64,000 bases of DNA from Myxococcales bacterium (GTDB lineage: Bacteria > Myxococcota_A > Polyangia > Polyangiales > Polyangiaceae). Under the pieces are notes generated by a model. It saw only the letters and a list, made by a program, of their open reading frames with translations, was not told the DNA's origin and ran no database searches. Within the stretch, counting starts at the first letter, position 1. Every line of letters begins with the position of its first letter. The stretch covers positions 473,516 through 537,515 of the forward strand of contig JADKKK010000003.1 of assembly GCA_016720545.1 (NCBI GenBank). Reading direction: 5' to 3'. Made by a program: the position numbers and the translations under genes. This document shows, piece by piece, positions 7,449 through 62,434 of the stretch.

Positions 7449-8228
7449 ATGGTCCAGGCCCTTCAGTTCGCGCCCGCCCCCGCCGAGGGGACCCGACGCG
7501 TCGCGACGCGCTTTCCGCGTCGCGTCCGGGGTGCGCCGCCGCGGCTCCTCGAGAGCCCGCGTGCGCGCCGCTGGCTCGCCGTCGTGGTGCCCTGGTCCGA
7601 AGGCTCGGTTGGGGCGGGTGGACGGTTGAGCGACGACGAGGCCGCGAGCCTCCAGCGCGCGGCGAACGGTGACGCCGCCGCGTTCCGCGTGCTCTTCGCG
7701 CGGCACCGCGTCGACGTGCAGCGCCTCGTGTTTCGAATGGTGGGCGCGCGGCCCGACCTGGACGACATCGTCCAGGAGGTGTTCATCCAGGTGTACCGCA
7801 GCCTGCGTGACTTCCGCGGCCAGTCGAAGTTCTCGACATGGTTGCACCGGGTCACGGTGAACGTCGTGCTGATGCACCGCCGCGCTGCGCGGAGCCGCCC
7901 GACCTATGCGGAGGAGGCGCCTGACGACCTCGCGCACGACGCGAAGCAGGTGCTCCCCGATGAGGCCGCGGCCCGTCACGAGCGGATGCGGGCCTTCGGC
8001 CGCCTGCTCGACCGGCTGGCCGACAAGAAGCGAATCGTCTTCGTGCTGCACGAGCTCGAAGGGAAGGCCCCGGCCGAGATCGCGGAGATTGTCGGCGCGC
8101 CGGTCCTGACCGTGCGGACGCGCCTCTTCTATGCGCGTCGCGAGCTCGAGGCGATGTGGCAGGACGAGCCCTCCTTGAAAGGGCTCGACGGGGGGTTCTC
8201 GCGTGCCTCGGCAGAGGAGGACTCATGA
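7449..8228 (+). CDS. RNA polymerase ECF-type sigma-70 factor. The true start may be an internal TTG near 7626.
   Basis: Sigma-70 region 2 (DIVQEVFIQVYRSLRDFRGQSKFSTWLHRVTVN) and region 4 (LADKKRIVFVLHELEGKAPAEIAEIVGAPVLTVRTRLFYARREL). The first ~55 aa of the long ORF look non-coding. Confidence 0.8.
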   Translation: MVQALQFAPAPAEGTRRVATRFPRRVRGAPPRLLESPRARRWLAVVVPWSEGSVGAGGRLSDDEAASLQRAANGDAAAFRVLFARHRVDVQRLVFRMVGARPDLDDIVQEVFIQVYRSLRDFRGQSKFSTWLHRVTVNVVLMHRRAARSRPTYAEEAPDDLAHDAKQVLPDEAAARHERMRAFGRLLDRLADKKRIVFVLHELEGKAPAEIAEIVGAPVLTVRTRLFYARRELEAMWQDEPSLKGLDGGFSRASAEEDS

Positions 8229-10062: not shown

Positions 10063-11163
10063 GTGGATGCTACCATTTGCGCCGTGGAGGCCGAGGAGCG
10101 AAAGAGAGAGAGAGGGACATCTTCCCGCGGGCCGAAGGCGCGCGACGCGGCGCCGCTCCCTCCGGCCGTGGTGGCTGCCCTCTCGGCGGCGAAATCCACC
10201 GACGCGACGGGGCGCCCTTCGGCGACGGGTGGGCGCGCGCTCGCGCTCGTGCCCGTGGTCGTGATGCTCACGCTCGCGGCGCTGCTTTTTCCTCGCGCCG
10301 TGCCGCCTCAGGAGCTCCCCCTGCCGCGCGTGGACGTCCGCGCCCTCGAGGCCACGGCCGAGCGGGACGCGGACTACGCGCGCTTGGCCGAGCGGGGCCT
10401 CTCCGACGACACCCGTGTGCTGGGGACGAAGCTCCGGGCCTTCAACAACCTTCAAGCCAGCTCGGCCGACGAGAGCGCCATGATCGCGGGCCGGGCGGCG
10501 CTGAACCACGCGATCGCCGCCGTGCTCGAGCGCTCGCCGGCCGAGCTCAAGCTGCTCCGCGCCGCGCAGGTGACCCTGTTCCTTCGGGCGGTCGCCGACT
10601 TCGAGGCGACTGGGGTCGAGGGCGACGAGCTCATCGCTCTCGGCGGAACGTTCGTGTCGCGCCTGCGCGCGGTCGGTTGGATCAAGGAGCGCACCGTACT
10701 TCCCGACGCCGCCGTACGCGCCGCCCTCTACAAGCTCATGTGGGGCGCGACGCTCAACCTCACAGCGGACGCGACCCTCGACCTCTCACTCGACGAGCAG
10801 CGCGCGGTGCATGCATTTTACATCCTTCACCCGCACCCGTCCGACGCGCGCCGCACCGGCCTCGCCGCGGCGTGGGCCGCCGCGCACGCCGCGAGCTCCC
10901 CCGCGGCCGCCTGCGAGGAGGCGAGGCTCGCGGAGATCGCGGCCACGGAAGAGTGGCGACTCGAAAAGGTGCGCAAGCTTGGCACGCTCGACCCCGACTA
11001 CCCCACGAGCTTCGCGCTGGGGATTGGCCTCTATCGCCAGCGGAAATACGCGGCCTCGGCGGAGGCCTTCCGTGACTGGCTGCGCGAGCACCCGACCGGC
11101 CCCCTCGCGCTGCGCGCGCAGAACCACCTCAAGGCGGCGATCGTGGCCGACTCGTCGCCCTAG
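10063..11163 (+). CDS. Hypothetical membrane-associated protein, 366 aa.
   Basis: Long ORF with a TM segment (LALVPVVVMLTLAALLF) and coding-like GC3. Its TAG stop abuts the CTAG of the downstream MITE-like element. Confidence 0.55.
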   Translation: MDATICAVEAEERKRERGTSSRGPKARDAAPLPPAVVAALSAAKSTDATGRPSATGGRALALVPVVVMLTLAALLFPRAVPPQELPLPRVDVRALEATAERDADYARLAERGLSDDTRVLGTKLRAFNNLQASSADESAMIAGRAALNHAIAAVLERSPAELKLLRAAQVTLFLRAVADFEATGVEGDELIALGGTFVSRLRAVGWIKERTVLPDAAVRAALYKLMWGATLNLTADATLDLSLDEQRAVHAFYILHPHPSDARRTGLAAAWAAAHAASSPAAACEEARLAEIAATEEWRLEKVRKLGTLDPDYPTSFALGIGLYRQRKYAASAEAFRDWLREHPTGPLALRAQNHLKAAIVADSSP

Positions 11164-11323
11164 CTAGAGCGCCGAACCGCTTGATTCGGTCGGCCTTTCG
11201 CCGATTTACGTCGCCGTACTTCGTTGCTCCTCCTCGCCTAGCAGCAGTAGGACTCGTCGTCGCGCCCCGCACGGCTCGCAACTCGGCGAAAATCCTCGGT
11301 CATCAAGCGGTTCGGCGCTCTAG
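11164..11323. mobile_element. MITE-like element (160 bp) with perfect 22-bp terminal inverted repeats.
   Basis: CTAGAGCGCCGAACCGCTTGAT at 11164-11185 and its exact reverse complement ATCAAGCGGTTCGGCGCTCTAG at 11302-11323, read directly from the sequence. There is no internal ORF. It lies in the convergent intergenic gap directly after a stop codon. Confidence 0.6.
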
Positions 11324-11446
11324 AAAGGGTCGCCTCGTCTCCTCCGAGCGAGAGGCCGTCGTCCACCCGACCTTGAAGGGCGTCCAGGGCCGCGCGGGCT
11401 CCGCCAGTTACGCGGTCCAGCCGTTCAAGCCTGGACGGGCGGTGGC

Positions 11447-12775
11447 TCACGAGCCCTCGGGGGGGTCGCACGGCGGCGTGGACGTGGACGTGGACGGAGG
11501 CGCGGGCGCGGGCGCGGGCGCGGGTGCAGGCGCCGGCGCGGGCACCGCGGTGGGGTCGGCGGGGGCTCGCTCTTCGCACGCGGCGGGCTGGGTCGAGACC
11601 CTCGCCCCGCGCACCGTGAGGCTGCCCGCGTAGGAGAGTTGGCGCGCGAAGAGCGCGCCGTCGATCGTCGCGTTGCCCGCAAAGGACACCTCGGCCTCGG
11701 GCGCGTACACGAGCCCATGGAACGCCTCCCTTCCGGCGAGCGTGAGCTTCGCGTTCTTGCCGCCCACGTAGAGGCGGAGCGCCTCGGGCCGCGTGGGATC
11801 GCCGAACGACGCCCGCCCGACCGTCGTCAGCGTACCGTCCACGAACATGTCCAGCGTCGCCCCCGCGCCGAGCACGATCTGGCCCTCGCCGATCGTGGTC
11901 AGGTCGCCCTCCAGGTAGAGCTGCACCGCGCCTTCGATCCGCAAGCTCGTGCCGCGCAGCTCGCCCGCACCTGAGAAGTAGTAGCGGCCGTCGCGCAGCG
12001 TGAGTGGCGCGCCCTTCGCCACGATGCGCGCGTCGGTGCCGAGCCCCGCGCGCGCGTTGTCGTTCGCGCCGCGGGCGGCTCGCACCGCGCCGGCCACGTC
12101 GTAGAGAGCGCCGGGATCGCACGCGCACGGCGGCGCCCCCGGATCGACGTACGCGCCGCGGGCTCCGGCGACCTGGCGCCCGGCGAACGACGTGGGCTCG
12201 GGAGTGCGGAGCGTGCCGCCTACGCGGAGGGAGCCCGCGCCCGAGAGCCGCCCACCGACGGCGAGGTCCGCGCCGACCGTGAGATCGCCCGCGCCCGACA
12301 GATCGCCCCCGGCGAGCGCGTGATCTCGCACGTCGAGGTCGCCGGCGAAGGACACGTCCGCCCCCGAGCGCAGGCTGCCGTCGATGCGGGTGCCGGACGC
12401 GAACGAGAGGCGACCGACGACGCCGACATCCGCGGTCTCGCCGGGTCGGGCGATGGTCGTGAGCTTGCCGGCGTGCGACATCGCGCCGCACACGCACACC
12501 GCGGCCTGCGCGAACAGCGCAGGCGCCGGGCTGCAGTGGGTCGTGAGCGCGGGAGGGCGTGGCCTCGGCGGGGCCGCGTACGAGAGCCCGCCGCTCTTCC
12601 CAACGCCCTGCGCCGCGCCGCTCTCCTCCACCTCTCCGCCGACGCGAATCGAACACGCCGACGCGAGGGTGAGCGCGGCGAGCGGCGCGAGCGACCAGAC
12701 TCGCGAGACGCGCGGGGCGTGCGAGGTTCCCGCGACGGACGTTGAGCGATGGGGAGCAAGCTTGAAGGGGCGCAT
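11447..12775 (-). CDS. Secreted repeat protein with Gly/Asp-rich beta-helix-like repeats and a C-terminal (PA)7 tract, 443 aa.
   Basis: Signal peptide MRPFKLAPHRSTSVAGTSHAPRVSRVWSLAPLAALTLASACS. Repeats include SGAGDLTVGADLAVGGRLSGAGSLRVGGTL. The C-terminal PAPAPAPAPAPAPAP is encoded by a (GCGGGC)n hexamer. ATG at 12775 was checked on the sequence. Confidence 0.6.
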   Translation of the reverse strand: MRPFKLAPHRSTSVAGTSHAPRVSRVWSLAPLAALTLASACSIRVGGEVEESGAAQGVGKSGGLSYAAPPRPRPPALTTHCSPAPALFAQAAVCVCGAMSHAGKLTTIARPGETADVGVVGRLSFASGTRIDGSLRSGADVSFAGDLDVRDHALAGGDLSGAGDLTVGADLAVGGRLSGAGSLRVGGTLRTPEPTSFAGRQVAGARGAYVDPGAPPCACDPGALYDVAGAVRAARGANDNARAGLGTDARIVAKGAPLTLRDGRYYFSGAGELRGTSLRIEGAVQLYLEGDLTTIGEGQIVLGAGATLDMFVDGTLTTVGRASFGDPTRPEALRLYVGGKNAKLTLAGREAFHGLVYAPEAEVSFAGNATIDGALFARQLSYAGSLTVRGARVSTQPAACEERAPADPTAVPAPAPAPAPAPAPAPPSTSTSTPPCDPPEGS

Positions 12776-12968
12776 CGGGTTCCTTTGGGTGAGGGGTCGA
12801 CCCTCCTTTCGCACGCTGCGTGCCACCGCCCTCGCCGCGCAGCGCCCAGGTTTGCGCAGGTTTCTTGGTTCGGCCGCGTCGCCGCCGTCGCGCGGACCGC
12901 CGGAGCGCCCGCGTGCCCGCGTCACCGGCGACGCGGTCGCTCACGTCTCGGTCGGGCCTTGACAGTGC

Positions 12969-19678: not shown

Positions 19679-20038
19679 GCGGGAGCACCGAGCGTGGGTG
19701 GGGCCCTCGGCCGCGGGTGGGAGGATCCGCCTGTCCGAGGTCGTCGTTCTCGCGCGGCCACACGGACCACCCAGCCCCGGACCGCGATCACGCCCCGCTC
19801 ATCGCGCGGAACGACGCCGAGTTGCGGAGCAACTGTCTTTCTGCCGGGGGTGAACGATTTTTTTCGGGGGGCGATTTGGGGCGTGGGACGGCTACCGCGC
19901 CGACGGGCGACTTCGCGCGGGGCGGCGCGTAGGCGGCTTGCTTGCTCGTCGTCGGGGTGCCCTGCGGGCGGACCCGGGACCCCGCCGCCCGAGCCCGAGG
20001 GCGAGAGGGAACCTGCGTTCGTTCCTTCGTCGCAGCCC

Positions 20039-20347
<309 letters not shown>

Positions 20348-20491
20348 TCAAAGATAGCTCCGGACCGAGATACAAGGGGCCCTCCCGCGGACGAGGGCCC
20401 CACCCACGCGGGTGGCACCGCGCGCTCCCCCACCCGTCCCCGCGCACCGCGCGCACCTCCCCCCGCACCGCACCCCCGCGCCCCCAGCCCG

Positions 20492-28617: not shown

Positions 28618-29343
28618 ATGAGAACCGATTCCGCAAGAGCTCGCGCGGCGCTCATCACGTCAACCCTCGCGGCGGCGACCGCCATGCTCGTCGGCGCGTG
28701 CGACGGCTTCGTGAAGATCGACGACCCGAGCGACGCGGGCGGCGGGGCCGACGCGCAGCTCCCGCCCCCGGGGGCCGACGCGACCCCCACGGCGGACGTC
28801 GGCGCGCCCGACACGCTCCCGCCGCCGCCGGACGCGACCTCCGACACGCTCCCGCCGCCGCCGGACGCCGGCCCCGACGCGACCCCCGACGCCGCGCCGG
28901 ACGCCACCCCCGACGCGACCCCCGACGCGACCCCCGACGCCGCGCCGGACGCCACCCCCGACGCCGCGCCCCCGGCGTGCACGCGGAACCCGGTCGCCGG
29001 CCAACCCTGCGGGCCGGGCGCCACCGCGTGCGGCGAGGTCGACATCTGCTGCAATGGCGGGGACAAGTTCCGCTGCACGGCGGGGATGTGGGAGCGCTAC
29101 CCCTCCGGTATCCTCTGCCTCTTTTGCGCCGCCACGCCCTGCGGCACGCAGCGCTGCCTCGGTAGCCAGTATTGCCTCGAGCGCGACGACGTCGGCGGCA
29201 CCGTCCACACCTGCGTCGACTACCCAGCGGCCTGCTCCGACAGCTGGACGTGTGGCTGCGTCGCGCCGCTCGTGCCCTCGTGCCCCGGGGCCACGTGCAA
29301 GGCCACCCCAGCCCATCACCTCACCATCGCCTGCCCGCCCTGA
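28618..29343 (+). CDS. Lipoprotein with a (PDAT/PDAA)n tandem repeat and a C-terminal Cys-rich domain.
   Basis: Lipobox LVGAC. A 12-nt tandem repeat encodes PDATPDAAPDATPDATPDATPDAAPDATPDAAP. The C-terminal domain has 19 Cys. Confidence 0.65.
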   Translation: MRTDSARARAALITSTLAAATAMLVGACDGFVKIDDPSDAGGGADAQLPPPGADATPTADVGAPDTLPPPPDATSDTLPPPPDAGPDATPDAAPDATPDATPDATPDAAPDATPDAAPPACTRNPVAGQPCGPGATACGEVDICCNGGDKFRCTAGMWERYPSGILCLFCAATPCGTQRCLGSQYCLERDDVGGTVHTCVDYPAACSDSWTCGCVAPLVPSCPGATCKATPAHHLTIACPP

Positions 29344-29376
29344 CCTCTTGCCCGATGCCGCGCGGACTCGGTCCGT

Positions 29377-30552
29377 TTATCGACGGGCTGCTACTAGAGC
29401 GAGCAGCTCGGCGTAGACGTCGAGGGTGGCGCGGGCGACGTGACTTTGGTCGAAGTCGGCGAGCGCTATCTCGCGACCGCGGGCGCCCAGCCGAAGCCGC
29501 AGCTCCTTGTCCACGATGACCCGCCGGAGCGCGGCGGTCAGCGCGCGCGCGTCGCGAGGCGGCACCAGCAGCGCGTTCTCGTCGTGGCGCGCCACCTCTC
29601 GGCAGCCCGGCACGTCGGTCGACACGATCGCGCGCCCCGACGCCGCCGCCTCGAGCAGCGCCTTCGGGAGCCCCTCTCCGTAGGAGGGCAGGCACGTCAC
29701 GTGCGATTCGCGATGCACGCGCTCCATGTCGTCGCGCCACCCGAGGGTCTCGACGAGACCCTCGCGCGCCCACGCGGCCACCTCGTCCGACGTGATGGAG
29801 GCAGGGTTGCCAGGGTCGGGCTCGCCGACCAGCCCGAAGCGCGCGGCCAGGCCTTCGGCGCGGAGCGCACGGGCGGCCTCGACGAACTCCCGAACCCCCT
29901 TGTCCCTCAAGAGGCGCGCGGGGAGCACGACGAAACAGGGCCCTTCCGGCTCCGGGGCGGGCGCGAAGCGGGCGGTGTCGACGCCGGCGCCGCGGATGAG
30001 CACGACGCGATCGCGGCGCATGACTCCCCACGCGATCCACTTCTCGAGGTCGTCGGGGTTCTGGAGGATGGTGCGCGTGTTTGGGGACGTAAGCAGCGCC
30101 TTGTACGCGGTCTCGACCATGACGCGGATGGCGCGCGACAGCGGGTCCTTGTTCAGGAAGACATAGCCCATGCCGGGCATGGCGTTGACGATCGCGGGCA
30201 CGCGGGCCGCCTTGGCGGCCACGGTGCCGTAGATCATCGGCTTGATCGCCACGTGGTGCACGACGTCGGGGCGCTCGCGCCGGTAGAGCTCGACGAGCCG
30301 GCGGGTGGTGTTGAGGTCGGAGAGGGGGTTTCGGCCCTGACGATCCATCACCACCGGCACGTGGCGGAGGCCGGCTGCCTCGATCTGGGTCGTGTACGGC
30401 CCCGTGGGCGTGACGACCGTCACGTCGTATCCGGCGGCCTGCGCTGCGAGGCCGAGCGAGAGCCGATGGCACAGGAAGTACCAGTCGGAGGCGACGAGGA
30501 AGAGAAGGCGCGGCCTCCGTCCGTCCCGGAGCGGCGCCGGCATGGCGCTCAC
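29377..30552 (-). CDS. GT4-family glycosyltransferase.
   Basis: Two-domain GT-B fold with the E-x7-E region (EGLPKALLEAAASGRAIV). Confidence 0.85.
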   Translation of the reverse strand: MSAMPAPLRDGRRPRLLFLVASDWYFLCHRLSLGLAAQAAGYDVTVVTPTGPYTTQIEAAGLRHVPVVMDRQGRNPLSDLNTTRRLVELYRRERPDVVHHVAIKPMIYGTVAAKAARVPAIVNAMPGMGYVFLNKDPLSRAIRVMVETAYKALLTSPNTRTILQNPDDLEKWIAWGVMRRDRVVLIRGAGVDTARFAPAPEPEGPCFVVLPARLLRDKGVREFVEAARALRAEGLAARFGLVGEPDPGNPASITSDEVAAWAREGLVETLGWRDDMERVHRESHVTCLPSYGEGLPKALLEAAASGRAIVSTDVPGCREVARHDENALLVPPRDARALTAALRRVIVDKELRLRLGARGREIALADFDQSHVARATLDVYAELLALVAARR

Positions 30553-30725
30553 GCAGGCCTCCGGCGGCGGCGCTCTGCGGGTGCGCGGGCCGACATGTCC
30601 GAGGCGTCGAGCTGCATGCCAGAGCGGATATCAGCGTGCTTACGCAAAAGAAATGTAAATCCGAGCGCTTTCGGGCACGGGTTTGAGGTGCCCTGCCGCG
30701 GGCAGCGGGTAGTGTCGGGCGAGCC

Positions 30726-31460: not shown

Positions 31461-32045
31461 CTAGAACGCGAAGCCGAGGGTGGCGTCGAGGTGGAGGCCC
31501 GCCGTGTAGAAGCTCGGCGGCGCCGCGCTGCCCTCGAGCTTGGCGAAGTGGAGCTGCCCGCCGAGCCCGAGCGAGAGGTGGACGATGTTGCCGAGCAGCA
31601 GCGCATACCCGATCGACGCGCCGAGGGCGCCGGTCCCGCCGGACTTCTCCACGCCGTTCTGGGTTCCGTGCACCGACCCGCCCTGAATGAACGGCGAGAT
31701 CCAGAGGCCGCGCGGGGCCTCTTCCGTCGCGTAGAAGTAGGGGCGCGCGCGGATCATCCACCCGCGAATATCGCCGACCTTCTCGGTCACGGTCCACGGA
31801 TCGTAGAGCCCGCCCGAGACCGCGACGGCCACGTGAGGCGCCACTGTGCGTTGGAAGCCGAGACCGATGACGTGCAGGCCGAGGTCGGCGAACACGACGT
31901 TCTTCTTCGACGGGAGCGCGGGCTTGGCGTCCTCCGGCTCGTGCTCGGCTGCCTTCTTCTCCTCCTCGGCCGCGGCTGGGGCGGCGAGGCCCAAGAGGGG
32001 CAGGAGCACGGCGCCGAGGGCGAAGAGAGGAGCGCGCTTTCGCAT
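31461..32045 (-). CDS. Outer-membrane beta-barrel protein (OmpA/porin-like), 194 aa.
   Basis: Signal peptide MRKRAPLFALGAVLLPLLGLAAPAAA, alternating amphipathic strands, and a C-terminal aromatic (…TLGFAF). Confidence 0.65.
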   Translation of the reverse strand: MRKRAPLFALGAVLLPLLGLAAPAAAEEEKKAAEHEPEDAKPALPSKKNVVFADLGLHVIGLGFQRTVAPHVAVAVSGGLYDPWTVTEKVGDIRGWMIRARPYFYATEEAPRGLWISPFIQGGSVHGTQNGVEKSGGTGALGASIGYALLLGNIVHLSLGLGGQLHFAKLEGSAAPPSFYTAGLHLDATLGFAF

Positions 32046-32152
32046 TTCTCCGTCGTCGCACACTTGTTTCCGAAATACGTGCAATTTCGCCCTCGCGCGG
32101 CGGTTCGTGGCGCGGGGGCGCCGCGAGACCGGCGAGCGCGTATGCTCGCGGC

Positions 32153-33400
32153 GTGACCACCGAGATCGTGTACCTGACCGACGTCGAGGGGCGCTGGGAC
32201 AAGCTCGCGGACGCGCTGAGCGGTCACGTGGGGGTCAGCCTGCGCGGGGACCACATCGAGGTCGCCGAGGACGCGACCCTCGTCTTTGGGGGCGACGCGA
32301 CCGATCGCGGGAGCGCGGGGCGGCGCGTGATGCGGGCGCTGCTGGACGCCAAGATGCGTCACCCAAGCCGCGTGGCGCTCCTCGCGGGGAATCGCGATCT
32401 GAACAAGCTGCGCCTGCGAGTCGAGCTCTGCGGCAGGCCGCCCGAGCGCGCGCCTACGGAGGTGCGCCAGGGGCCGCGGGCCGAGCTCCTCCGGTGGCTC
32501 TTCACGAACACGATGGGCGCGCGCGAAGCGTTCGACAACCGGGCGATCGAGCTCGACGTCACCGGCGCCGGCGCCGACGACGCGGTCGTGGGCTCGTTCC
32601 TCGACGACGTGGGTCGCGACGGTCTGACGACCCGTTACCTCGCGCAATGCCAGCTCGGCGTTCGGTTCGACGAGACCCTGTTCGTGCACGGCGGCGTCAC
32701 CTCCGAGAGCCTGGGTCACGTCCCCGGTCTTCGTTCGAGCGCGAGCTCGCGCGCACGCGAGAGCGTCGACGAATGGCTCGAGGCCCTGAACCGCTGGTAC
32801 GCCGAGCAGCTCGACGCCTACGCGGGCGCGCGCGACCTCGAGAGCGGCGCCTACGAGCCTATCGTCGCGTACCAGGCGCCCGTTCCCGGCACGCGACGGC
32901 ACCAAGCGAGCGTCGTGTATGGCCGCCTCGCCGACGCGCACAACAACCCCGAGCTGCCGCCGGCGGACGTGCGCGCGGCGCTGCGGCGGAGCGGCGTCTC
33001 TCGGCTCGTGGTGGGGCACACGCCGACCGGCGACGTGCCCGTGGTGCTGCGCGCGGAGGCCGAGCGCTTCGAGCTCGTGTGCGCCGACAACTCGTACGGG
33101 CGCCTGGAGCGCGGGCCCCGCGTGGTGGTGCGCGGCGACGAGCTCACTATGGAGGGGAGCGCGCGGCTCGACGGCGGCGACGAGGCGCGCGCCCTGACGA
33201 GGCTCTCGCTCGCGGAGCGCAGTGGGCCGATCGGGCTACGCGATCGCAGCACGGGACACCTCGTGGGCGGGCGCCTCGCGGGCGACCAGGTGTACCTCTA
33301 CCGCTCGGCCGGGGGCTTCGTGGTCGAACAGCTCGCGCAGGCGACCTCGGAGGCGGCGGGGCGACCGCTGGCGGAGCCGGCCGAGCGCACGCCGGGCTAG
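32153..33400 (+). CDS. Calcineurin-like metallophosphoesterase.
   Basis: GDATDRG, GNRD, and VGHTP motifs. GTG start. Its TAG stop is embedded in the CTAG of the following repeat element. Confidence 0.75.
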   Translation: MTTEIVYLTDVEGRWDKLADALSGHVGVSLRGDHIEVAEDATLVFGGDATDRGSAGRRVMRALLDAKMRHPSRVALLAGNRDLNKLRLRVELCGRPPERAPTEVRQGPRAELLRWLFTNTMGAREAFDNRAIELDVTGAGADDAVVGSFLDDVGRDGLTTRYLAQCQLGVRFDETLFVHGGVTSESLGHVPGLRSSASSRARESVDEWLEALNRWYAEQLDAYAGARDLESGAYEPIVAYQAPVPGTRRHQASVVYGRLADAHNNPELPPADVRAALRRSGVSRLVVGHTPTGDVPVVLRAEAERFELVCADNSYGRLERGPRVVVRGDELTMEGSARLDGGDEARALTRLSLAERSGPIGLRDRSTGHLVGGRLAGDQVYLYRSAGGFVVEQLAQATSEAAGRPLAEPAERTPG

Positions 33401-33402
33401 CA

Positions 33403-33582
33403 GCCCGTTGATTGACTCCCGTCGGCCCGTCGCCGCCGCATCCCGACCGCGGTCGTTGCGATCCTGCGGTGCGTGCTCACCTAGAAACGCCCACCTGGAA
33501 CACGCTCCGCGCGCTCCTCGGATCGCGCCTTGGCGGGCCGGGCGCGGACGACGCCGGGCCTCGGTCCGTAAATCCACAGGCT
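33403..33582. mobile_element. MITE-like element (~180 bp) of the CTAG/…TTGAT family with imperfect terminal inverted repeats.
   Basis: Left end CTAGCAGCCCGTTGAT; right end ATCCACAGGCTGCTAG (13/16 match to the inverse of the left end). Related ends occur at 11164, 29345-29396 and 43178-43270. Confidence 0.45.
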
Positions 33583-33599
33583 GCTAGCTAGACCTCCCC

Positions 33600-34290
33600 G
33601 CGTGACGAGCGGCTAGTCCCCTGGAAGCGTGATCCCTTCCAGAAGTCGCGCGGCTCGGCCTTTCGCCACAAGGGAGCGAGGGGGTGTCCCGTTTTCGGCG
33701 GCGGTGGGAGGATACTCATGTTCGAGGGTCGGCGTTCTCGCGCGGTCACACCCGAAACCACTGTCCCCTGAGCGCAAAGCGCCGCCTCCACCGCGCGGAA
33801 CGACGTCCGAGTTGAGACGGCCCGCCGCCGCCGAAAACGGGCACCCCCTCGCTCCTCGGAATGACACCGAAGACCGGACTCTGATACGAACCACGACTCC
33901 AGGGACTAGTCTCCTGGAAGCGTGATCCCTTCCAGAAGTCGCGCGGCTCGGCCTTTCGCCACAAAGGGAGCGAGGGGTGTCCCGTTTCCGGCGGGGGGGG
34001 GGGGATGTTCGAGGGTCGGCGTTCGCGCGGTCACACCCGAAACCACTGTCCCCTGAGCGCAAGCGCCGCCTCCACCGCGCGGAACGACGTCCGAGTTGAG
34101 GACGGGCCCGCCGCCGCCGAAAACGGGGCACCCCCTCGCTCCTCGGAATGACACCGAAGACCCGACTTCTGATACGAACCACGACTCCAGGGGACTAGCT
34201 AGTCTCCTGGAAGCGTGATCCCTTCCAGAAGTCGCGCGGCTCGGCCTTTCGCCACAAGGGAGCGAGGGGGTGTCCCGTTTTCGGCGGCGT
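33600..34290. repeat. Tandem direct repeat, ~295-bp unit x 2.3 copies, each unit carrying a ~30-bp internal inverted repeat, a 7-bp hairpin and near-palindromic ends at ACTAGT.
   Basis: Units start at about 33606, 33905 and 34197, each beginning (c)tagtcYcctggaagcgtgatcccttccagaagtcgcgcggctcggcctttcgccaca…. Internally GGGAGCGAGGGGGTGTCCCGTTTTCGGCGGCGG pairs with CCGCCGCCGAAAACGGGCACCCCCTCGCTCC about 110 nt downstream. Copy 2 carries a G10 tract. Confidence 0.7.
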
Positions 34291-41298: not shown

Positions 41299-41970
41299 TC
41301 AGTGCGCCGGGTAGCTCGGAGCCGCGGGCGCGAGGCGAGGATCGAGGGTGACCTTCACCGTCGAGTCGGCGAGCGCGAGATCGATCGAGGCACACTGCTT
41401 GGCCTCCACGCCGACCCCCTCGGCGTGGTCCGCGAGCTTCCCGAGGGCGGTGTACTCTCGATCCGCCGCCTCGGCGTCTCGCCGCGCGAGGGCGTCGCGG
41501 ATCGCGGGCGCCCGCGCATCGGCGGCGCGGATCGCCACGTTGAGCTGCGTGAGCTTCTCGGTGAGGCACGCGGTGACCACGAGGTCGCGGGCGCGCTGGA
41601 GGCGCCTGCGGACGAGCGTCGACTGAGCTCGCATGCGGTCGAGGCGACGCTGCGACTCGGTGAGCTGCTCCTCCGGCGTGAGGCGTGTCTTCTTGTCCGC
41701 CGCCTCGGCTGTGGCCGTGACCGCGGGTGGCGCCTCCCCGGCCTGCGCGCGAGGTGCGACGGTGGCCGGCGGTGTGGGCCGGGCAGCCGGCTCGGCCGGC
41801 GGCGCGGGGCTTGGCGGGGCAGGCGGGGCAGGCGGGGCAGGCGGGGCAGGCTGGGCAGGCGTGGTGGCGACGTGCGCGGCGGACGCGGGCGGAGACGCGA
41901 GCGCCAGCGCCCCGTGTCCCACGAGCACGGCGGCGACCAGCACCCCGCGGAGGAGGCTCTTCGTCTTCAT
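41299..41970 (-). CDS. Secreted Pro-rich / coiled-coil protein, 223 aa.
   Basis: Signal peptide MKTKSLLRGVLVAAVLVGHGALALA. (PAPPAP)n is encoded by a 9-bp GGCGGGGCA-type tandem repeat. The C-terminal half is a helical coiled-coil-like region. Confidence 0.55.
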   Translation of the reverse strand: MKTKSLLRGVLVAAVLVGHGALALASPPASAAHVATTPAQPAPPAPPAPPAPPSPAPPAEPAARPTPPATVAPRAQAGEAPPAVTATAEAADKKTRLTPEEQLTESQRRLDRMRAQSTLVRRRLQRARDLVVTACLTEKLTQLNVAIRAADARAPAIRDALARRDAEAADREYTALGKLADHAEGVGVEAKQCASIDLALADSTVKVTLDPRLAPAAPSYPAH

Positions 41971-42079: not shown

Positions 42080-43180
42080 GTGAGGTCCACCAAGCTGGTC
42101 GCGTGCGCCACCCTGCCCGTCGCGTCCGTCGCGTCCGTCGCGCTCGCCACGCTCGTCGCGCTCGTCGCGTGTGGTGGCCCGCGCAAGCACACGAGCACGG
42201 GCGAGGGCTCGAGCGCGATCCAGGGAGGCACCGAGGACGAGGTCCACACCTTCGCGGTGGCCGTGATCATGCCGGAGTCCACCTGCTCGGGGACGCTCAT
42301 CGCGCCGAACCTGGTGCTCACCGCGCGCCACTGCGTCGCCGACAGCGGCAACAGCGACGAGGTCGACTGCGCGCGCGACCGGTTCTCCGCGCCCGCGCCG
42401 GCGAGCCGCTTCTCCGTGACCACCGCGAAGGTCGTTCGCGGCAGCACGGCGCGATACCGCGTGGCGAAGATCGTCGTGCCCTCGGAGTCCAAGTTCTGCG
42501 GCAACGACATCGCCCTGCTGCAGCTCACCGACAACGTTCCTGCCTCGGAGGCGACGCCGGCCACCCCGGCGCTCGACCCGCCGATGACCTCGCACCCCCT
42601 CTACGGCACCACGGTGGCGACGCTGGGCTACGGCATTTCGGGCCCCAAGAAGACCGACGACGGCACGCGGAGGCTGCGTGAGGACGTCCCCATCCAGTGC
42701 ACGCCGGGCGATCCCGAGAAGAGCTGCCGCCTCTCGGACTTCGACATCACCCCCACCGAGTTCGTCGCCGGCGACGGCCTGTGCTCGGGCGACTCCGGCG
42801 GCAGCGCGTTCGACCAAGAGAGCTTCACGCGCGGGCGCCCCGTCACGTTCGGCGTGCTCTCGCGAGCCAGCGAGACCGGCTTCAAGTGCATCGATGCCGT
42901 GTTCACCCGCACCGACGCGTTCGCAGGCCTGCTCGTCGCGGCCGCGACCGAGGCCGCGGAACAGGGCGGCTATCCGCTGCCCGTGTGGGCAGGCGGGGCG
43001 GGCAGCGCCGACGCGGGGGCCGAGGGCGGGCCCGCGGCTCCCCCCACGGTGGAGGCCGCGAGCCCACCGGGAGCGGCCTGCGCGACCGGCTCGGCGGGTC
43101 GAGGCCCCTCGGGCGCCGCCCCCGCCACGCTGGTCGCGGTCCTCGCTTGCGTAGCCGCGGCGCGGAGGCGACGGCGCTAG
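42080..43180 (+). CDS. Trypsin-like (S1) serine protease lipoprotein with a C-terminal MYXO-CTERM-like sorting tail.
   Basis: LVAC lipobox. His (LTARHC), Asp, and Ser (GDSGGSAF) catalytic-triad motifs. The tail …GAACATGSAGRGPSGAAPATLVAVLACVAAARRRRR is a Cys/Gly stretch, hydrophobic helix and poly-Arg. Confidence 0.8.
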   Translation: MRSTKLVACATLPVASVASVALATLVALVACGGPRKHTSTGEGSSAIQGGTEDEVHTFAVAVIMPESTCSGTLIAPNLVLTARHCVADSGNSDEVDCARDRFSAPAPASRFSVTTAKVVRGSTARYRVAKIVVPSESKFCGNDIALLQLTDNVPASEATPATPALDPPMTSHPLYGTTVATLGYGISGPKKTDDGTRRLREDVPIQCTPGDPEKSCRLSDFDITPTEFVAGDGLCSGDSGGSAFDQESFTRGRPVTFGVLSRASETGFKCIDAVFTRTDAFAGLLVAAATEAAEQGGYPLPVWAGGAGSADAGAEGGPAAPPTVEAASPPGAACATGSAGRGPSGAAPATLVAVLACVAAARRRRR

Positions 43181-43270
43181 CAGCCCGTTGATCTGCGGAC
43201 CGAGACCTGTCGTCGTCCGCGCCCGACCCGCCGAGGCGCGAACCGATGAGCCCTGCCCAGGCTGCTACGG
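43178..43270. mobile_element. Short MITE-like/REP-like element of the CTAG…TTGAT family.
   Basis: Left end CTAGCAGCCCGTTGAT is identical to the left end of the 33403 element and includes the protease TAG stop. The right end is degenerate (…CCCAGGCTGCTACGG). Confidence 0.35.
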
Positions 43271-57161: not shown

Positions 57162-58175
57162 CTAGAAGCGACCGAGCAGCGCGCCGCCCGCGCCGCCGGG
57201 GCCCACGACAGGCACGAGGCTGACGCGATCTCGCTCGCGCGGGTTCGGCGTAGCCCACGGGCGCAGCACGAGCGCCGACACCACCGCGGCGCCCAAGAAC
57301 ACGCCGCCGCCAACGTAGCCAACGATCGACCCCGTGCCGAGGCCCGACGCCTTCGACGCGGCGTCCTCGAGGGGCTGGCAGCCGGGCGCCCCGGGCCGAG
57401 GGCAGGGCGCGCCGACGCTGAGGAGCCGGAGCTCGTCGTCCGAGCTGGCCGACATCGCGCCCATCACCGCGCCCGCCCCGAGGCCGGCGACGCCGACCAC
57501 GCCGAGCACCACGGGCACCGTCCACGAAGCCCCGGCTTCGCGCTCCGCGGGAGGCGGCGATGGCGGCGGCGGCGACGTGTCGCCCTCGAGCGCGACCACC
57601 ACCGTGCGCTCGGCGGGGCACGCCACGGGGCGCTTTCGCCGGCGCTGGCCGAAGGTCACGACGACCTCGTGCGGTCCGGCGAGCACCGCGATGGGGTCGG
57701 CGAGCGGGGCCTCGCCCGCGACGACGCCGTCGACGCGCACCTGGGTCCCGCGCGGCGTGCCCGGCGCGAGAGTGATGAGGCTCACCTTCGTGCCGAGGTC
57801 CGCGAAGAGCTTCTTGGCGAGCGTGGTGTGCGCGGGATCGGTCTGCGGCAGCTTCAGGAGCTCGCGAAAGTGGTGGTACGCGCCGAGCACGTGGCCTACG
57901 CGGTGCTCGGCGCGCGCGAGGTTGAACAGCACGTCGGGCTCCTTCAGGACCGCCCACGCCTGCGCGTACTTGAGCCTCGCCTGCTCGTGCTCGCCGCGCC
58001 CCCAGAGCGCGTGGCCCTCGTCGAACCGCTGCTTGGCCTCTGCGCTGAACGCATCCTCGGCGCGGGCCTCGGCGCCGCCCGCCGCCAAGGTGACGAGCCC
58101 CACGGTCAGCCCGAGCGCCGCCCGGACAAGCCACGTGCGCGCTCGCGTCCTCGCTTGCGCTTCACGCTCGCTCAC
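57162..58175 (-). CDS. TPR-like / PEGA-domain membrane protein, paralog A (337 aa).
   Basis: Signal peptide, a TPR-like helical region, a PEGA-like beta domain (TQVRVDGVVAGEAPL…LAGPHEVVV), a poly-Pro linker and C-terminal TM segments. GTG start in a GTGA overlap with the upstream beta-helix gene. Paralogous to 62453..63490. Confidence 0.7.
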   Translation of the reverse strand: MSEREAQARTRARTWLVRAALGLTVGLVTLAAGGAEARAEDAFSAEAKQRFDEGHALWGRGEHEQARLKYAQAWAVLKEPDVLFNLARAEHRVGHVLGAYHHFRELLKLPQTDPAHTTLAKKLFADLGTKVSLITLAPGTPRGTQVRVDGVVAGEAPLADPIAVLAGPHEVVVTFGQRRRKRPVACPAERTVVVALEGDTSPPPPSPPPAEREAGASWTVPVVLGVVGVAGLGAGAVMGAMSASSDDELRLLSVGAPCPRPGAPGCQPLEDAASKASGLGTGSIVGYVGGGVFLGAAVVSALVLRPWATPNPRERDRVSLVPVVGPGGAGGALLGRF

Positions 58176-59470
58176 GGCGCCACCTCCAGCTCGGACTGCG
58201 ACAGCCCCGCGGGGCCGTCATTCACTCCCGCCGCTCCGCCTACGCCTCCCGCTCCCCCGGCTCCTGCCTTCAGCGTCCCGTCTCCCGTGGGCTTCGTTCC
58301 CTTGTAGACTACAGCTACCGAGATCCCGCCCGCTCCGCCAGCTCCCGCTCCGCCCGCTCCGCCCTTCCCGCCGTCTCCCCCGCCGCAGCCCGGGGCAGCC
58401 ACCTCGGCCGCCCCAGGTCCGCCCCCGCCCCCGGTACCCCCGGTACCCCCGGTACCCCCGGCAGCGGCCGTGAGCGTCACGTTCGTCATCGTCACGTTCG
58501 AGCTCACGCTCAGCAGCGCGATGCTCCCGCCTCCGCTCTTGCCCCCCTTCCCTCCCGTACCCCCGCATCCCCCGCAGGCGCCTCCGCCTCCAAAGCTGTC
58601 CGCTCCGCGTGAGCCTCCGCCCCCGCCACCTTGACCGGGCAGTCCGCTCGCTCCCGCGGGCGCCTCCGACGGCGTCCACTCCCCGCTCCCGGATATCCCT
58701 CCCGGCGTCGTCACCTTCGCAGCTGGCGCTCCCTCGGCTCGCTCTGCTCCGGTGTTCCCCGAGCCGTTCGGCTCCGCAGCTACGCAGCTCGCTAGGGCGA
58801 CTCCACCCGCTCCGTCGGTCGGCGCGACCCCGCCCAGCGCCTCGGCTCCGCTCCCAGCCGTGATCCAATGGGGCGCCGCCGCCCCCCCTCCGGATCCGCC
58901 TCCCGAGCTGCACGTGCACGGCTTCGCCGCTCCCCCGCGCTCGCGCTCGCCGGGTTCCGTTCCCGTTCCCCGTCGCGTACGTCCCCGTCGTCCCGCCCGC
59001 TCCAGCCTCCCCAGCGAATCCACCCTTCGCCTCCACTCCCACCTTCCGTAGGCTCACCTTCACCGCCTCCACAGCCCACACTCCCACGCTCGTACGCGAC
59101 CCCGCCGTCCCCGCCGCTCCTTCGATGTCCAGCTCCGCCAGCGTCGCCGTCACCTTCCCTATCTTCACCGCGTACTCTGGCTTCGTCCCCACCACCTTCG
59201 CTCGCCCTCCAGCCTTCCCGAAGTCGCACGTCACTCCCGAGTACACCTCCACGTCGCTCTTCACCTCCACGCTCTCCGCGTACGTCCCCTCGCACACCAC
59301 CACCCGCCCGCGACCCGCAGAGAGCCCCTTCCCCACCGTCTTGTAGGGCTTCGTCCTCGTCCCCGCGTTCCCGTCGTCCCCACTCGGCGACACGTACACT
59401 CCGTAGCTGTCCACTAGGCACTTCCTCAGGGTTCTTCACTGGCTCGTTCGGCGTCTCGCACCCGCCCCCG
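58172..59470 (-). pseudogene. Beta-helix (DUF1565-like) / Gly-rich repeat protein, tandem copy 1. N-terminally truncated (no signal peptide or start) and frameshifted.
   Basis: The unit begins mid-domain (…GCETPNEPVKNPEE, with an extra G against the other copies) directly after the stop of copy 2. The N-part frame 58218..59414 shifts at about 58950 into the C-part frame 58172..59023 (…GGTGGTGG…SELEVAP*). Confidence 0.55.
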
Positions 59471-59473
59471 GCC

Positions 59474-60954
59474 TCACGGCGCCACCTCCAGCTCGGACTG
59501 CGACAGCCCCGCGGGGCCGTCATTCACTCCCGCCGCTCCGCCTACGCCTCCCGCTCCCCCGGCTCCTGCCTTCAGCGTCCCGTCTCCCGTCGGCTTCGTT
59601 CCCTTGTACACTACAGCTACCGAGATCCCGCCCGCTCCGCCCGCTCCCGCTCCGCCCGCTCCGCCCTTCCCGCCGTCTCCCCCGCCGCAGCCGGAGAGCG
59701 AGCCACCTCCAGCCGCCCCGGGTCCGCCCCCGCCCCCGGTACCCCCGGTACCCCCGGTACCCCCGGTACCCCCGGTACCCCCGGCAGCGGCCGTGAGCGT
59801 CACGTTCGTCATCGTCACGTTCGAGCTCACGCTCAGCAGCGCGATGCTCCCGCCTCCGCTCTTGCCCCCCTTCCCTCCCGTACCCCCGCATCCCCCGCAG
59901 GCGCCTCCGCCTCCAAAGCTGTCCGCTCCGCGTGAGCCTCCGCCCCCGCCACCTTGACCGGGCAGTCCGCTCGCTCCCGCGGGCGCCTCCGACGGCGTCC
60001 ACTCCCCGCTCCCGGATATCCCTCCCGGCGTCGTCACCTTCGCAGCTGGCGCTCCCTCGGCTCGGTCTGCTCCGGTGTTCCCCGAGCCGTTCGGCTCCGC
60101 AGCTACGCAGCTCGCTAGTGCGACTCCACCCGCTCCGTCGGTCGGCGCCACTCCGCCCAGCGCCTCGAGCCCGCTCCCAGCCGTATCCAATGGAGCGCCG
60201 CCTCGGGCCCCAGCGGTCACGCCTCCCGAGCTGCACGTGCACGGCTTCGCCGCTCCCCCCGCGCTCGCGCTCGCCGGGTTCCCGTTCCCGTTCCCCGTCG
60301 CGTACGTCCCCGTCGTCCCGCCCGCTCCAGCCTCCCCAGCGAATCCACCCTTCGCCTCCACTCCCACCTTCCGTAGGCTCACCTTCACCGCCTCCACAGC
60401 CCACACTCCCACGCTCGTACGCGACCCCGCCGTCCCCGCCGCTCCTTCGATGTCCAGCTCCGCCAGCGTCGCCGTCACCTTCCCCACTCTCACCGCGTAC
60501 TCTGGCTTCGTCCCCACCACCTTCGCTCGCCCTCCAGCCTTCCCGACGTCGCTCGTCACCCCCGAGTACACCTCCACGTCGCTCTTCACCTCCACGCTCT
60601 CCGCGTACGTCCCTCGCACACCACCACCCGCCCGCGACCCGCAGAGAGCCCCTTCCCCACCGTCTTGTAGGGCTTCGTCCTCGTCCCGGGGTTCCCGTCG
60701 TCCCCACTCGGCGACACGTACACTCCGTAGCTGTCCACTAGGCACTTCTCAGGGTTCTTCACTGGCTCGTTCGGCGTCTCGCACCCGGGCGGAACCACCA
60801 CGTCCACTCCCCCGTCCACCGACCCCTCCCCGACCCCGCCCTCTCCCACCCCTCCGTCCGAAGCCTCCGTCACGTAATAGTTGTTCGTCGTGCACCCCGA
60901 CCCCGAAACCAGGCCCGCCAGCACGAACGCGCACAGCGCCACCCCCGGCCTCAC
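59474..60954 (-). CDS. Secreted beta-helix (DUF1565-like) lipoprotein with a C-terminal Gly-rich repeat region, tandem copy 2. Apparent -1 frameshift at a C-run near 60615.
   Basis: GTG start in a GTGA overlap with the copy-3 stop. Signal peptide/lipobox MRPGVALCAFVLAGLVSGSGC. The N-domain YVSPSGDDGNPGTRTKPYKTVGKGLSAGRGRVVVCEG then continues in another frame (TYAESVEVK…). CCC here corresponds to CCCC in copies 1 and 3. Confidence 0.6.
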
Positions 60955-62434
60955 GGCGCCACCTCCAGCTCGGACTGCGACAGCCCCGCGGGGCCGTCAT
61001 TCACTCCCGCCGCTCCTCCCACGCCTCCCGCTCCCCCCGCTCCCGCCTTCAGCGTCGCGTCTCCCGTCGGCTTCGTTCCCTTGTAGACTACAGCTACCGA
61101 GATCCCGCCCGCTCCGCCCGCTCCCGCTCCGCCCGCTCCGCCCTTCCCGCCGTCTCCCCCGCCGCAGCCCGGCGTTCCGCCACCGGCCACCCCACCAAGT
61201 CCGCCCCCGCCCCCGGTACCCCCGGTACCCCCGGTACCCCCCGGTCCCCCCGGCAGCGGCCGTGAGCGTCACGTTCGTCATCGTCACGTGCGAGCTCACG
61301 CTCAGCAGCGCGATGCTCCCGCCTCCGCCCTTGCCCCCCTTCCCTCCCGTACCCCCGCATCCCCCGCAGCCGCCTCCGCCTCCAAAGCTGTCCGCCCCGC
61401 GTGACCCACCGCCGCCACCCCCTTGACCGGGCAGTCCGCTCGCTCCCGCGGCCGCCTCCGACGGCGTCCCCTCCCGCTCCCGGATATCCCTCCCGGCGTC
61501 GTCACCTTCGCAGCTGGCGCTCCTCGGCTCGGTCTGCTCCGGTGTTCCCCGAGCCGTTCGGCTCCGCAGCTACGCAGCTCGCTAGTGCGACTCCACCCGC
61601 TCCGTCGGTCGGCGCCACTCCGCCGAGCGCCTCGGCTCCGCTCCCAGCCGTGATCAACGGGGCGCCGCCGCCCCCTCCTCCGGATCCGCCTCCCGAGCTG
61701 CACGTGCACGGCTTCGCCGCTCCCCCCGCGCTCGCGCTCGCCGGGTTCCCGTTCCCGTTCCCCGTCGCGTACGTCCCTGTCGTCCCGCCCGCTCCAGCCT
61801 CCCCACCGAATCCACCCTTCGCCTCCACTCCCACCTTCCGAAGGCTCACCTTCACCGCCTCCACAGCCCACACTCCCACGCTCGTACGCGACCCCGCCGT
61901 CCCCGCCGCTCCTTCGATGTCCAGCTCCGCCAGCGTCGCCGTCACCTTCCCCACCTTCACCGCGTACTCGGGCTTCGTCCCCACCACCTTCGCTCGCCCT
62001 CCAGCCTTCCCGAAGTCGCACGTCACTCCCGAGTACACCTCCACGTCGCTCTTCACCTCCACGCTCTCCGCGTACGTCCCCTCGCACACCACCACCCGCC
62101 CGCGACCCGCAGAGAGCCCCTTCCCCACCGTCTTGTAGGGCTTCGTCCTCGTCCCGGGGTTCCCGTCGTCCCCACTCGGCGACACGTACACTCCGTAGCT
62201 GTCCACTAGGCACTTCTCAGGGTTCTTCACTGGCTCGTTCGGCGTCTCGCACCCGGGCGGAACCACCACGTCCACTCCCCCGTCCACCGACCCCTCCCCG
62301 ACCCCGCCCTCTCCCACCCCTCCGTCCGACTCGGCGTCGCACGTTCCGTTGTCGCAGAGCGACGGAATCGAAAAACACCCCGCGAACACGAGCGCGGTGG
62401 TCGTCGCGAGCCCAAGTGCAATGATCTTCTTCAT
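60951..62434 (-). CDS. Secreted beta-helix (DUF1565-like) lipoprotein with a Gly-rich repeat C-terminus, tandem copy 3. At least two single-base deletions in C-runs near 61440-61520 break the frame.
   Basis: Start MKKIIALGLATTTALVFAGC (lipobox) at 62434 with an intact N-domain. The frame is lost after …NTGADRAE (stop at 61502). The C-terminal Gly-rich part and …SELEVAP* (ending 60951) are in other frames. The corresponding copy-2 DNA has one more C at each site. Confidence 0.6.

Follow-up and report, generated by a model that had tools for sequence, protein, structure and literature searches.

A family of non-coding miniature elements in Polyangia-type myxobacteria that targets CTAG and often lies at TAG stop codons

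The 160-bp element that follows a hypothetical protein gene in the 64-kb stretch of myxobacterial DNA analysed here (the window) is a genuine mobile element, a MITE that is present in many copies and strictly targeted to CTAG. It represents an undescribed family, which we call family A, of a well-known kind. Very probably it is a non-coding deletion derivative of an insertion sequence, moved by a DDE-type transposase encoded elsewhere and integrating at CTAG. The initial annotation, made from the letters of the window, had proposed a non-autonomous, multi-copy element that is bounded by terminal inverted repeats, inserts at CTAG and hence often sits at TAG stops. That proposal is supported by 56 distinct flanks, by a copy nested within another copy and by the absence of the element from an ortholog locus.

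Results

Structure of the element

The 160-bp unit with perfect 22-bp terminal inverted repeats is borne out, the two repeats matching at 22 of 22 positions (Table 1). CTAGAGCGCCGAACCGCTTGAT has exactly two sites in the 64-kb window, and the same two are the only ones recovered when up to three mismatches are allowed; at that tolerance, 100 shuffles yielded no match. The terminal repeat runs on imperfectly to a total of 53 nt with 77% complementarity, and folding of the 160 nt gives one long hairpin (z = -7.0 and -8.6 for RNA of the two strands and -7.35 for DNA).

The interior had been described as non-coding with a second motif, and we find the same. An internal CTAGCAGC lies at 11238-11245, no ORF falls entirely within the element, and those overlapping it, among them a spurious 702-aa minus-strand ORF that ends at the internal CTAG, have no coding GC3 signal. 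A search of the element against Rfam returned no family at gathering scores; its sole low-score match was to the plant miRNA precursor MIR537, at 32.6 bits where the threshold is 100, and is of the generic hairpin kind. Scanning 10900-11700 for promoters and terminators revealed no promoter-like or terminator-like site and no U-tract.

Judged by GC3, the real neighbors of the element are the two genes listed in Table 1, so that it occupies a 283-bp gap between convergent genes. Some homologues of the upstream product carry the source name TolA-binding protein. The stop of this gene does directly precede the CTAG of the element, as had been noted; CTAGCTAG spans 11160-11167, and the stop belongs to an extra CTAG that adjoins the element on its outer side. 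Strain L002, whose locus is 97.9% identical over 2.2 kb, has the element without this extra CTAG: there a single left CTAG is both gene stop and element flank, and 44 bp of the element's centre are missing. The doubled motif CTAGCTAG stands at the left junction in the window and in two further assemblies of the locus (L001 and L103). It occurs three times in the window (11160-11167, 33584-33591 and 34195-34202), every time at the junction of a miniature element, and another locus carries the tract CTAG-CTAAG-CTAG-CTAG (L100, ~7655-7676). Such tracts may be excision footprints or the result of slippage.

Table 1. Coordinates of the miniature elements and neighboring genes in the window
Feature	Position	Strand	Remarks
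Family-A MITE copy	11164..11323	no strand	160 bp, non-coding, 62.5% GC (window, 71.8% GC)
Left terminal inverted repeat, CTAGAGCGCCGAACCGCTTGAT	11164..11185	+	Duplicated target: the leading CTAG or its TA
Right terminal inverted repeat	11302..11323	-	Exact reverse complement of the left repeat
Central CTAG of the element	11238..11241	no strand	Insertion target in other family-A copies
Upstream gene, 366-aa hypothetical protein	10063..11163	+	GC3 0.87; stop TAG at 11161-11163
Extra CTAG holding the upstream gene's stop TAG (11161-11163)	11160..11163	+	Polymorphic between strains
Convergent downstream gene, DUF7305/adhesin-like	11447..12940	-	Stop 123 bp from the element
Family-B end remnant	29360..29397	no strand	2-mismatch copy of CTAGCAGCCCGTTGAT at 29379-29394 (-)
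Family-B MITE, 191 bp, imperfect inverted repeats CTAGCAGCC(C/T)GT(T/G)GAT	33397..33587	no strand	Left CTAG contains the stop of gene 31871-33400
Array of 2.3 head-to-tail family-C units (293 bp each; ends CTAGTCCCCTGGA / TCCAGGGGACTAG)	33613..34290	no strand	Joined via shared CTAG or CTAGCTAG
Truncated family-B copy, ~92 bp	43177..43268	no strand	Fills the whole gap between convergent genes

Dispersal of family A

We searched the GTDB set, one genome per species, with the 18-mer AGCGCCGAACCGCTTGAT, from which CTAG had been left out on purpose. The full element was found on 19 contigs of the MAG 'Myxococcales bacterium GFS_9240' (63-68% GC) and on one contig of 'Polyangiaceae bacterium AMR_MDS_5554' (71% GC), and a metagenome scan with a 21-mer added 22 contigs from four JGI samples (67-74% GC). 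Genomes and metagenomes together gave 56 distinct flanks, which correspond to ~35-40 insertion sites. The window itself has one family-A copy; the others come from other MAGs and from metagenomes that also contain the source organism.

These copies (L003, the 19 GFS_9240 contigs and the 22 JGI contigs) are 95-99% identical to the window element. Most measure 160 bp. Their flanks are unrelated, either orientation is found, and the hosts belong to at least three myxobacterial lineages. The terminal inverted repeat is kept in all copies; the centre is polymorphic in length (116-161 bp), with full-length copies predominating. Many lie at contig ends, as expected of repeats. Two of the JGI contigs, L091 and L103, are the window locus itself, and both break inside the element, while the Logan assembly of the same locus (L001) breaks 26 bp into it. 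Copies in the MAG at 65% GC are 97% identical to that of the 72% GC window, and this identity across genomes of different composition suggests recent horizontal spread of family A.

Two loci hold much shorter derivatives in which the family-A ends are joined and almost the whole interior is lost (L052, 6660-6701, ~38 bp; L078, 3305-3338, ~34 bp); these probably arose by deletion across the hairpin. We set aside ~60 single 18-mer matches in unrelated taxa, which are at chance level for an 18-mer, and two matches in Kofleriaceae (L007 and L051), where the 18-mer stands in another context with no CTAG and is a chance or unrelated occurrence.

CTAG targeting and target duplication

CTAG, absent from the query, precedes 25 of the 27 ends visible in the genome scan. 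Overall it is present at 54 of 56 distinct flanks, and no base preference is seen further out. The possibility raised at the outset, that the element might be unique or its flanks without association to CTAG, is contradicted by these counts.

Duplication of the target had also been anticipated, and L087 bears it out: a family-A copy there sits within a second one, inserted at its central CTAG and flanked by CTAG on either side. Of the two, the outer copy has diverged further and is hence the older. Its centre, ...CTCGC-CTAG-CAGCAG..., has become ...CTCGC-CTAG-[AGCGCC...GGTGCT]-CTAG-CAGCAG..., so that the locus is a natural filled-versus-empty site that shows insertion with target duplication. 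The same central CTAG of a family-A copy is occupied in L097 by a copy of family C, and junctions of A with B, A with C and B with C in which the two elements have one CTAG between them are frequent (L102, L106, L092, L025 and L034).

Variant flanks are few: TTAG twice (L052 and L105), GTAG twice (29390 and 43268), CCAG and CCGG. They differ mostly at the outermost base and thus lean weakly toward duplication of TA, with G...C as the end bases of the element, but they could be plain point mutations. CTAG is palindromic, and duplications of 2 and 4 bp are therefore indistinguishable from sequence.

The element is absent from the ortholog locus L108 (protein 84% identical), which has the same PilZ gene, target gene and convergent gene and where the convergent stops are only 19 bp apart. 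It is likewise absent from a second ortholog locus, 72% identical. Both orthologs end in TGA, not TAG, and so do not give the exact pre-insertion sequence. The empty allele of the window insertion would read CCCTAGAAAGGG; the exact empty-site pattern CTCGTCGCCCTAGAAAGGGTCG had no match in a metagenome search.

Association with stop codons

Fourteen of 50 distinct element ends (~28%) abut the TAG of a long, high-GC3 ORF, and the window copy, through its extra CTAG, is a fifteenth case; ~70% of the ends lie elsewhere. At the stops, left and right ends are similarly frequent (~6 versus ~9), without orientation bias, and the outer copy in L087 adjoins the stops of two convergent genes, one at either end. 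Within the window, CTAG is ~2-fold under-represented, with 42 sites against 80.7 expected. Gene stops account for 13 of these sites, and 14 are inside miniature elements or at their borders; three of the 13 CTAG-type stops carry an element. The idea that CTAG targeting explains insertion at gene ends is thus upheld by the ends found at TAG stops, but the accompanying statement that CTAG is largely confined to such stops was too strong, given that only 13 of 42 sites are gene stops.

A single CTAG can hold stops on both strands, and its duplication would rebuild a stop for each gene, making the insertion silent at the protein level. CTAG is rare in a GC-rich genome and often overlaps TAG stops, so that insertions which rebuild the stop would accumulate at gene ends and between convergent genes.

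The same positions could be read in terms of function. The element would then be a conserved 3'-end hairpin (a bidirectional terminator, an mRNA stabilizer or an RNase III site) or a small RNA gene under selection, and its repetition secondary. The very strong stability of the hairpin, the frequent location of copies directly behind stops and between convergent genes, and the 97% identity of copies in 65% and 72% GC genomes would all fit this idea. Yet a terminator or RNA gene sits poorly with the lack of a U-tract, promoter-like site or Rfam family and with the absence of orientation bias, and no host function is indicated by these features. Moreover, most ends are away from stops, copies nest in and truncate one another, the centre varies in length, and the ortholog does well without the element. 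We thus regard a primary host function as distinctly unlikely and treat family A as a mobile element.

Related families and arrays

Family A is accompanied by other CTAG-bounded elements. Its subfamily A2 (L035, 680-838) is ~68% identical and has the same block structure. Repeat positions 8, 15 and 17 are altered in both arms together. On folding, A2 does not keep the global hairpin, and only its terminal repeats pair robustly. Co-variation of the arms where the global hairpin is lost fits terminal repeats that are predicted to be protein-binding ends rather than parts of a conserved RNA fold.

This behavior bears on the possibility that family A is of the REPIN type, that is, two inverted REPs in the form of a hairpin, spread by a RAYT (an IS200/IS605-like Y1 enzyme) via single-stranded hairpin DNA and with no target duplication. 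Like REP sequences and REPINs mobilized by RAYTs, family A is abundant and intergenic, forms a long hairpin and has near-identical copies. Unlike them, it duplicates its target at CTAG, as the CTAG on both sides of the nested L087 copy attests, and conserves co-varying terminal repeats rather than the global hairpin. The CTAG at 54 of 56 flanks fits integration by a DDE enzyme with a staggered cut, and no RAYT gene was seen among the loci inspected (by inspection rather than domain search). A REPIN origin is, on this evidence, very improbable.

Family B was the source of the "related ends" that had been placed at the stops of the genes ending at 33400 and 43180. The positions were right: at 33397 and again at 43177, a copy of CTAGCAGCCCGTTGAT overlaps the TAG stop of the respective ORF. 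The CTAGCAGCC ends, however, belong to a different family, which has in common with family A only CTAG, a CGyTTGAT-like stretch and subterminal motifs. The latter are GTCGGCyTTTCGCC on the left and CCTCGGTC on the right in A, A2 and B, with GCTCGGCCTTTCGCC in family C. By these shared motifs, family B is probably related to A, although different from it. The gap that the copy at 43177 fills is bounded by the TAG of a trypsin-like gene on the plus strand (43178-43180) and by that of a beta-helix gene on the minus strand (CTA at 43265-43267).

A degenerate copy had further been noted after the stop at 29343. There is indeed a 2-mismatch copy 36 nt past the TGA at 29341-29343, but it also overlaps the 3' end of a minus-strand gene (29377-30630). 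This gene encodes a glycosyltransferase whose last six codons (…ALVAARR) and TAA stop appear to be read from the family-B remnant CTAGTAGCAGCCCGTCGATAA (29377-29397); its C terminus may have been replaced through an insertion.

The stretch from 33397 to 34290 is ordered as a family-B element, a 25-bp CTAG-bounded scrap and 2.3 units of family C. A further CTAG-bounded family, D, is present in L044.

At least four such families, A through D, with unrelated repeats and only CTAG in common as boundary and target could in principle do without a dedicated transposase. A restriction or homing endonuclease of the C^TAG type would cut the bounding CTAGs, and the fragments would be religated into other CTAGs. 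The CTAGCTAG and CTAG-CTAAG-CTAG-CTAG tracts at junctions would fit such a process, as would the failure to find an autonomous partner among the 107 loci, the window and the plasmid and viral sequences searched. The long terminal inverted repeats that each family has of its own, which co-vary in both arms between A and A2, would be unneeded, however, and cutting would also hit the CTAG inside family A, yet full-length copies dominate. These considerations render cutting and religation extremely improbable, and a transposase acting on the terminal repeats is the better account.

Family C and an IS110-type remnant

At 19692-20409, the window has a 718-bp unit bounded by 30-nt inverted repeats. 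On its minus strand is a 71-aa C-terminal remnant of an IS110-family transposase (Pfam Transposase_20, E = 4e-7). The sequence just 3' of the remnant (19690-19830) is ~73% identical to the inner core of family C (33673-33855 and also 33967-34142). Both have a long stem, GTCGnCGTTCtCGCGCGG / CCGCGCGGAACGACG, around a variable region of ~45 nt. IS1111-group elements encode a seek or bridge RNA at this position, 3' of the transposase gene. Family C may thus be a CTAG-MITE shell that carries an IS110-type RNA module without its transposase. A search of the family-C core against Rfam returned no match, and guide-like complementarity between its variable loop and the flanking arms was no better than in cross-controls.

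From here, a broader view of all five groups can be drawn. The elements A, A2, B, C and D would form a guild of unrelated CTAG-bounded elements that home to CTAG and so in effect to stop codons, including single CTAGs shared by the overlapping stops of convergent genes. Some might be co-opted as 3' hairpins, and family C would contribute an IS110/IS1111-type RNA module, a possible bridge or seek RNA. We consider this composite picture unlikely.

Other repeats in the window

Two kinds of repeat in the window are of a different nature. Three tandem copies of a unit of 1.3-1.47 kb, 84-100% identical in blocks, occupy 58171-62329. Each holds a run of the 9-bp repeat CCCCGGTAC, and the region looks like a small tandemly duplicated gene family with a variable proline/glycine-rich repeat. 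In addition, 28818-28980 and 41799-41873 are in-frame tandem repeats inside coding regions, with units of 12 bp (CCCGACGCGACC-like) and 9 bp (GGGCAGGCG), respectively, and represent low-complexity tracts.

Discussion

The preferred mechanism for family A, a MITE mobilized at CTAG by a DDE enzyme, would proceed in several steps. First, a transposase supplied in trans would bind the 18-22-bp terminal repeats and integrate the element at CTAG, presumably by cut-and-paste movement. Second, the target would be duplicated at integration, either as the whole CTAG or as its central TA with G...C as the element's own end bases, and every copy would consequently be bracketed by CTAG. Third, where the target contains a TAG stop on either strand, the stop would be rebuilt and the protein left unchanged; such insertions would be tolerated and would accumulate behind genes and exactly between convergent genes. 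Fourth, each insertion would create two new CTAG targets, to which family A adds a third in its centre, so that CTAG-targeting families would pile up beside and inside each other. Finally, the host transcript would gain a long 3' hairpin, which might affect it.

The putative transposase would be encoded elsewhere. No autonomous insertion sequence with matching ends was found in the set of sequences named above, and searches of the loci examined for long-spaced pairs of CTAG inverted repeats brought up only miniature elements. BLAST of plasmids with the element gave no match, and a scan of viral sequences with the family-A end gave nothing; two viral matches to the family-B 16-mer are due to chance, with no element present.

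The only transposase-like sequence adjoining a family-A copy is in L094 (1404-1600). There, half a family-A copy is followed, exactly at the central CTAG, by a 100-bp N-terminal remnant of an IS1182-family transposase (…FYNAKDDRGRAGYHPAMMVALLVYAHCVGK; NCBIfam E = 3.8e-5), after which an asparagine-synthase-like gene starts. The 41-aa fragment had no homologs in a homolog search, tblastn of the loci examined was empty, and its N-terminal 25 conceptual residues do not align. The remnant could be a relic of the parent insertion sequence or an unrelated insertion.

Family A has several parallels among described elements. MITEPsy1 in Pseudomonas syringae, a derivative of the IS5-family element ISPsy2, is a non-coding, multi-copy element of 100 nt with 18-nt terminal inverted repeats that inserts at CTAG or YTAA and duplicates its target (PMC3189936). 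Family A is likewise small, non-coding, bounded by terminal inverted repeats, inserted at CTAG and present in many copies. It differs in having no sequence similarity to MITEPsy1, a length of 160 bp, perfect 22-bp repeats and hosts in Myxococcota. Bacterial MITEs of the IS630/Tc1-mariner type include the Correia and RUP elements. IS630 itself is described as integrating at the TA within 5'-CTAG-3' and duplicating TA (Tenzen and Ohtsubo, 1991, as cited in PMC2170065). Duplication of TA would give exactly the arrangement C-TA-[G...C]-TA-G seen at family-A copies, but the family-A ends (GAG...) match no citable IS630 end, and no IS630-type transposase is linked to them. The IS5-group element ISMysh01, for its part, combines terminal inverted repeats with direct repeats of the four bases CTAG (PMC9241763). 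Family A, with its terminal inverted repeats and 54 of 56 flanks in CTAG, resembles the IS5 family in both respects. Ends that start with GAG are found in the IS427/IS1031 group, and the family-A ends, read with a TA duplication, start in the same way. A CTAG or YTAR target with 2-4 bp duplicated would be expected of an IS5-family derivative, but the CTAG target fits IS630 and the IS5 group equally well and so does not discriminate between them. The partnership with an IS5/IS427 element that the initial annotation had brought up may be entertained by analogy.

For those who work with these genomes, the elements have practical consequences. They explain why short-read assemblies break behind many genes, and they can mislead gene callers, as with the spurious 702-aa ORF that runs into the element and the real gene whose last codons appear to come from a remnant. 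Rebuilding of the stop at a rare CTAG target offers a clean example of a tolerated insertion. Current concepts of transposition are left unchanged; the stop-preserving geometry and the multi-family arrays are neat but will not surprise specialists. Our search for MITE literature on Polyangia-type myxobacteria found none, and the present analysis adds for this group an undescribed MITE family together with several sister families. The close likeness of family-A copies between a 65% GC and a 72% GC genome hints that this family has spread horizontally in recent times.
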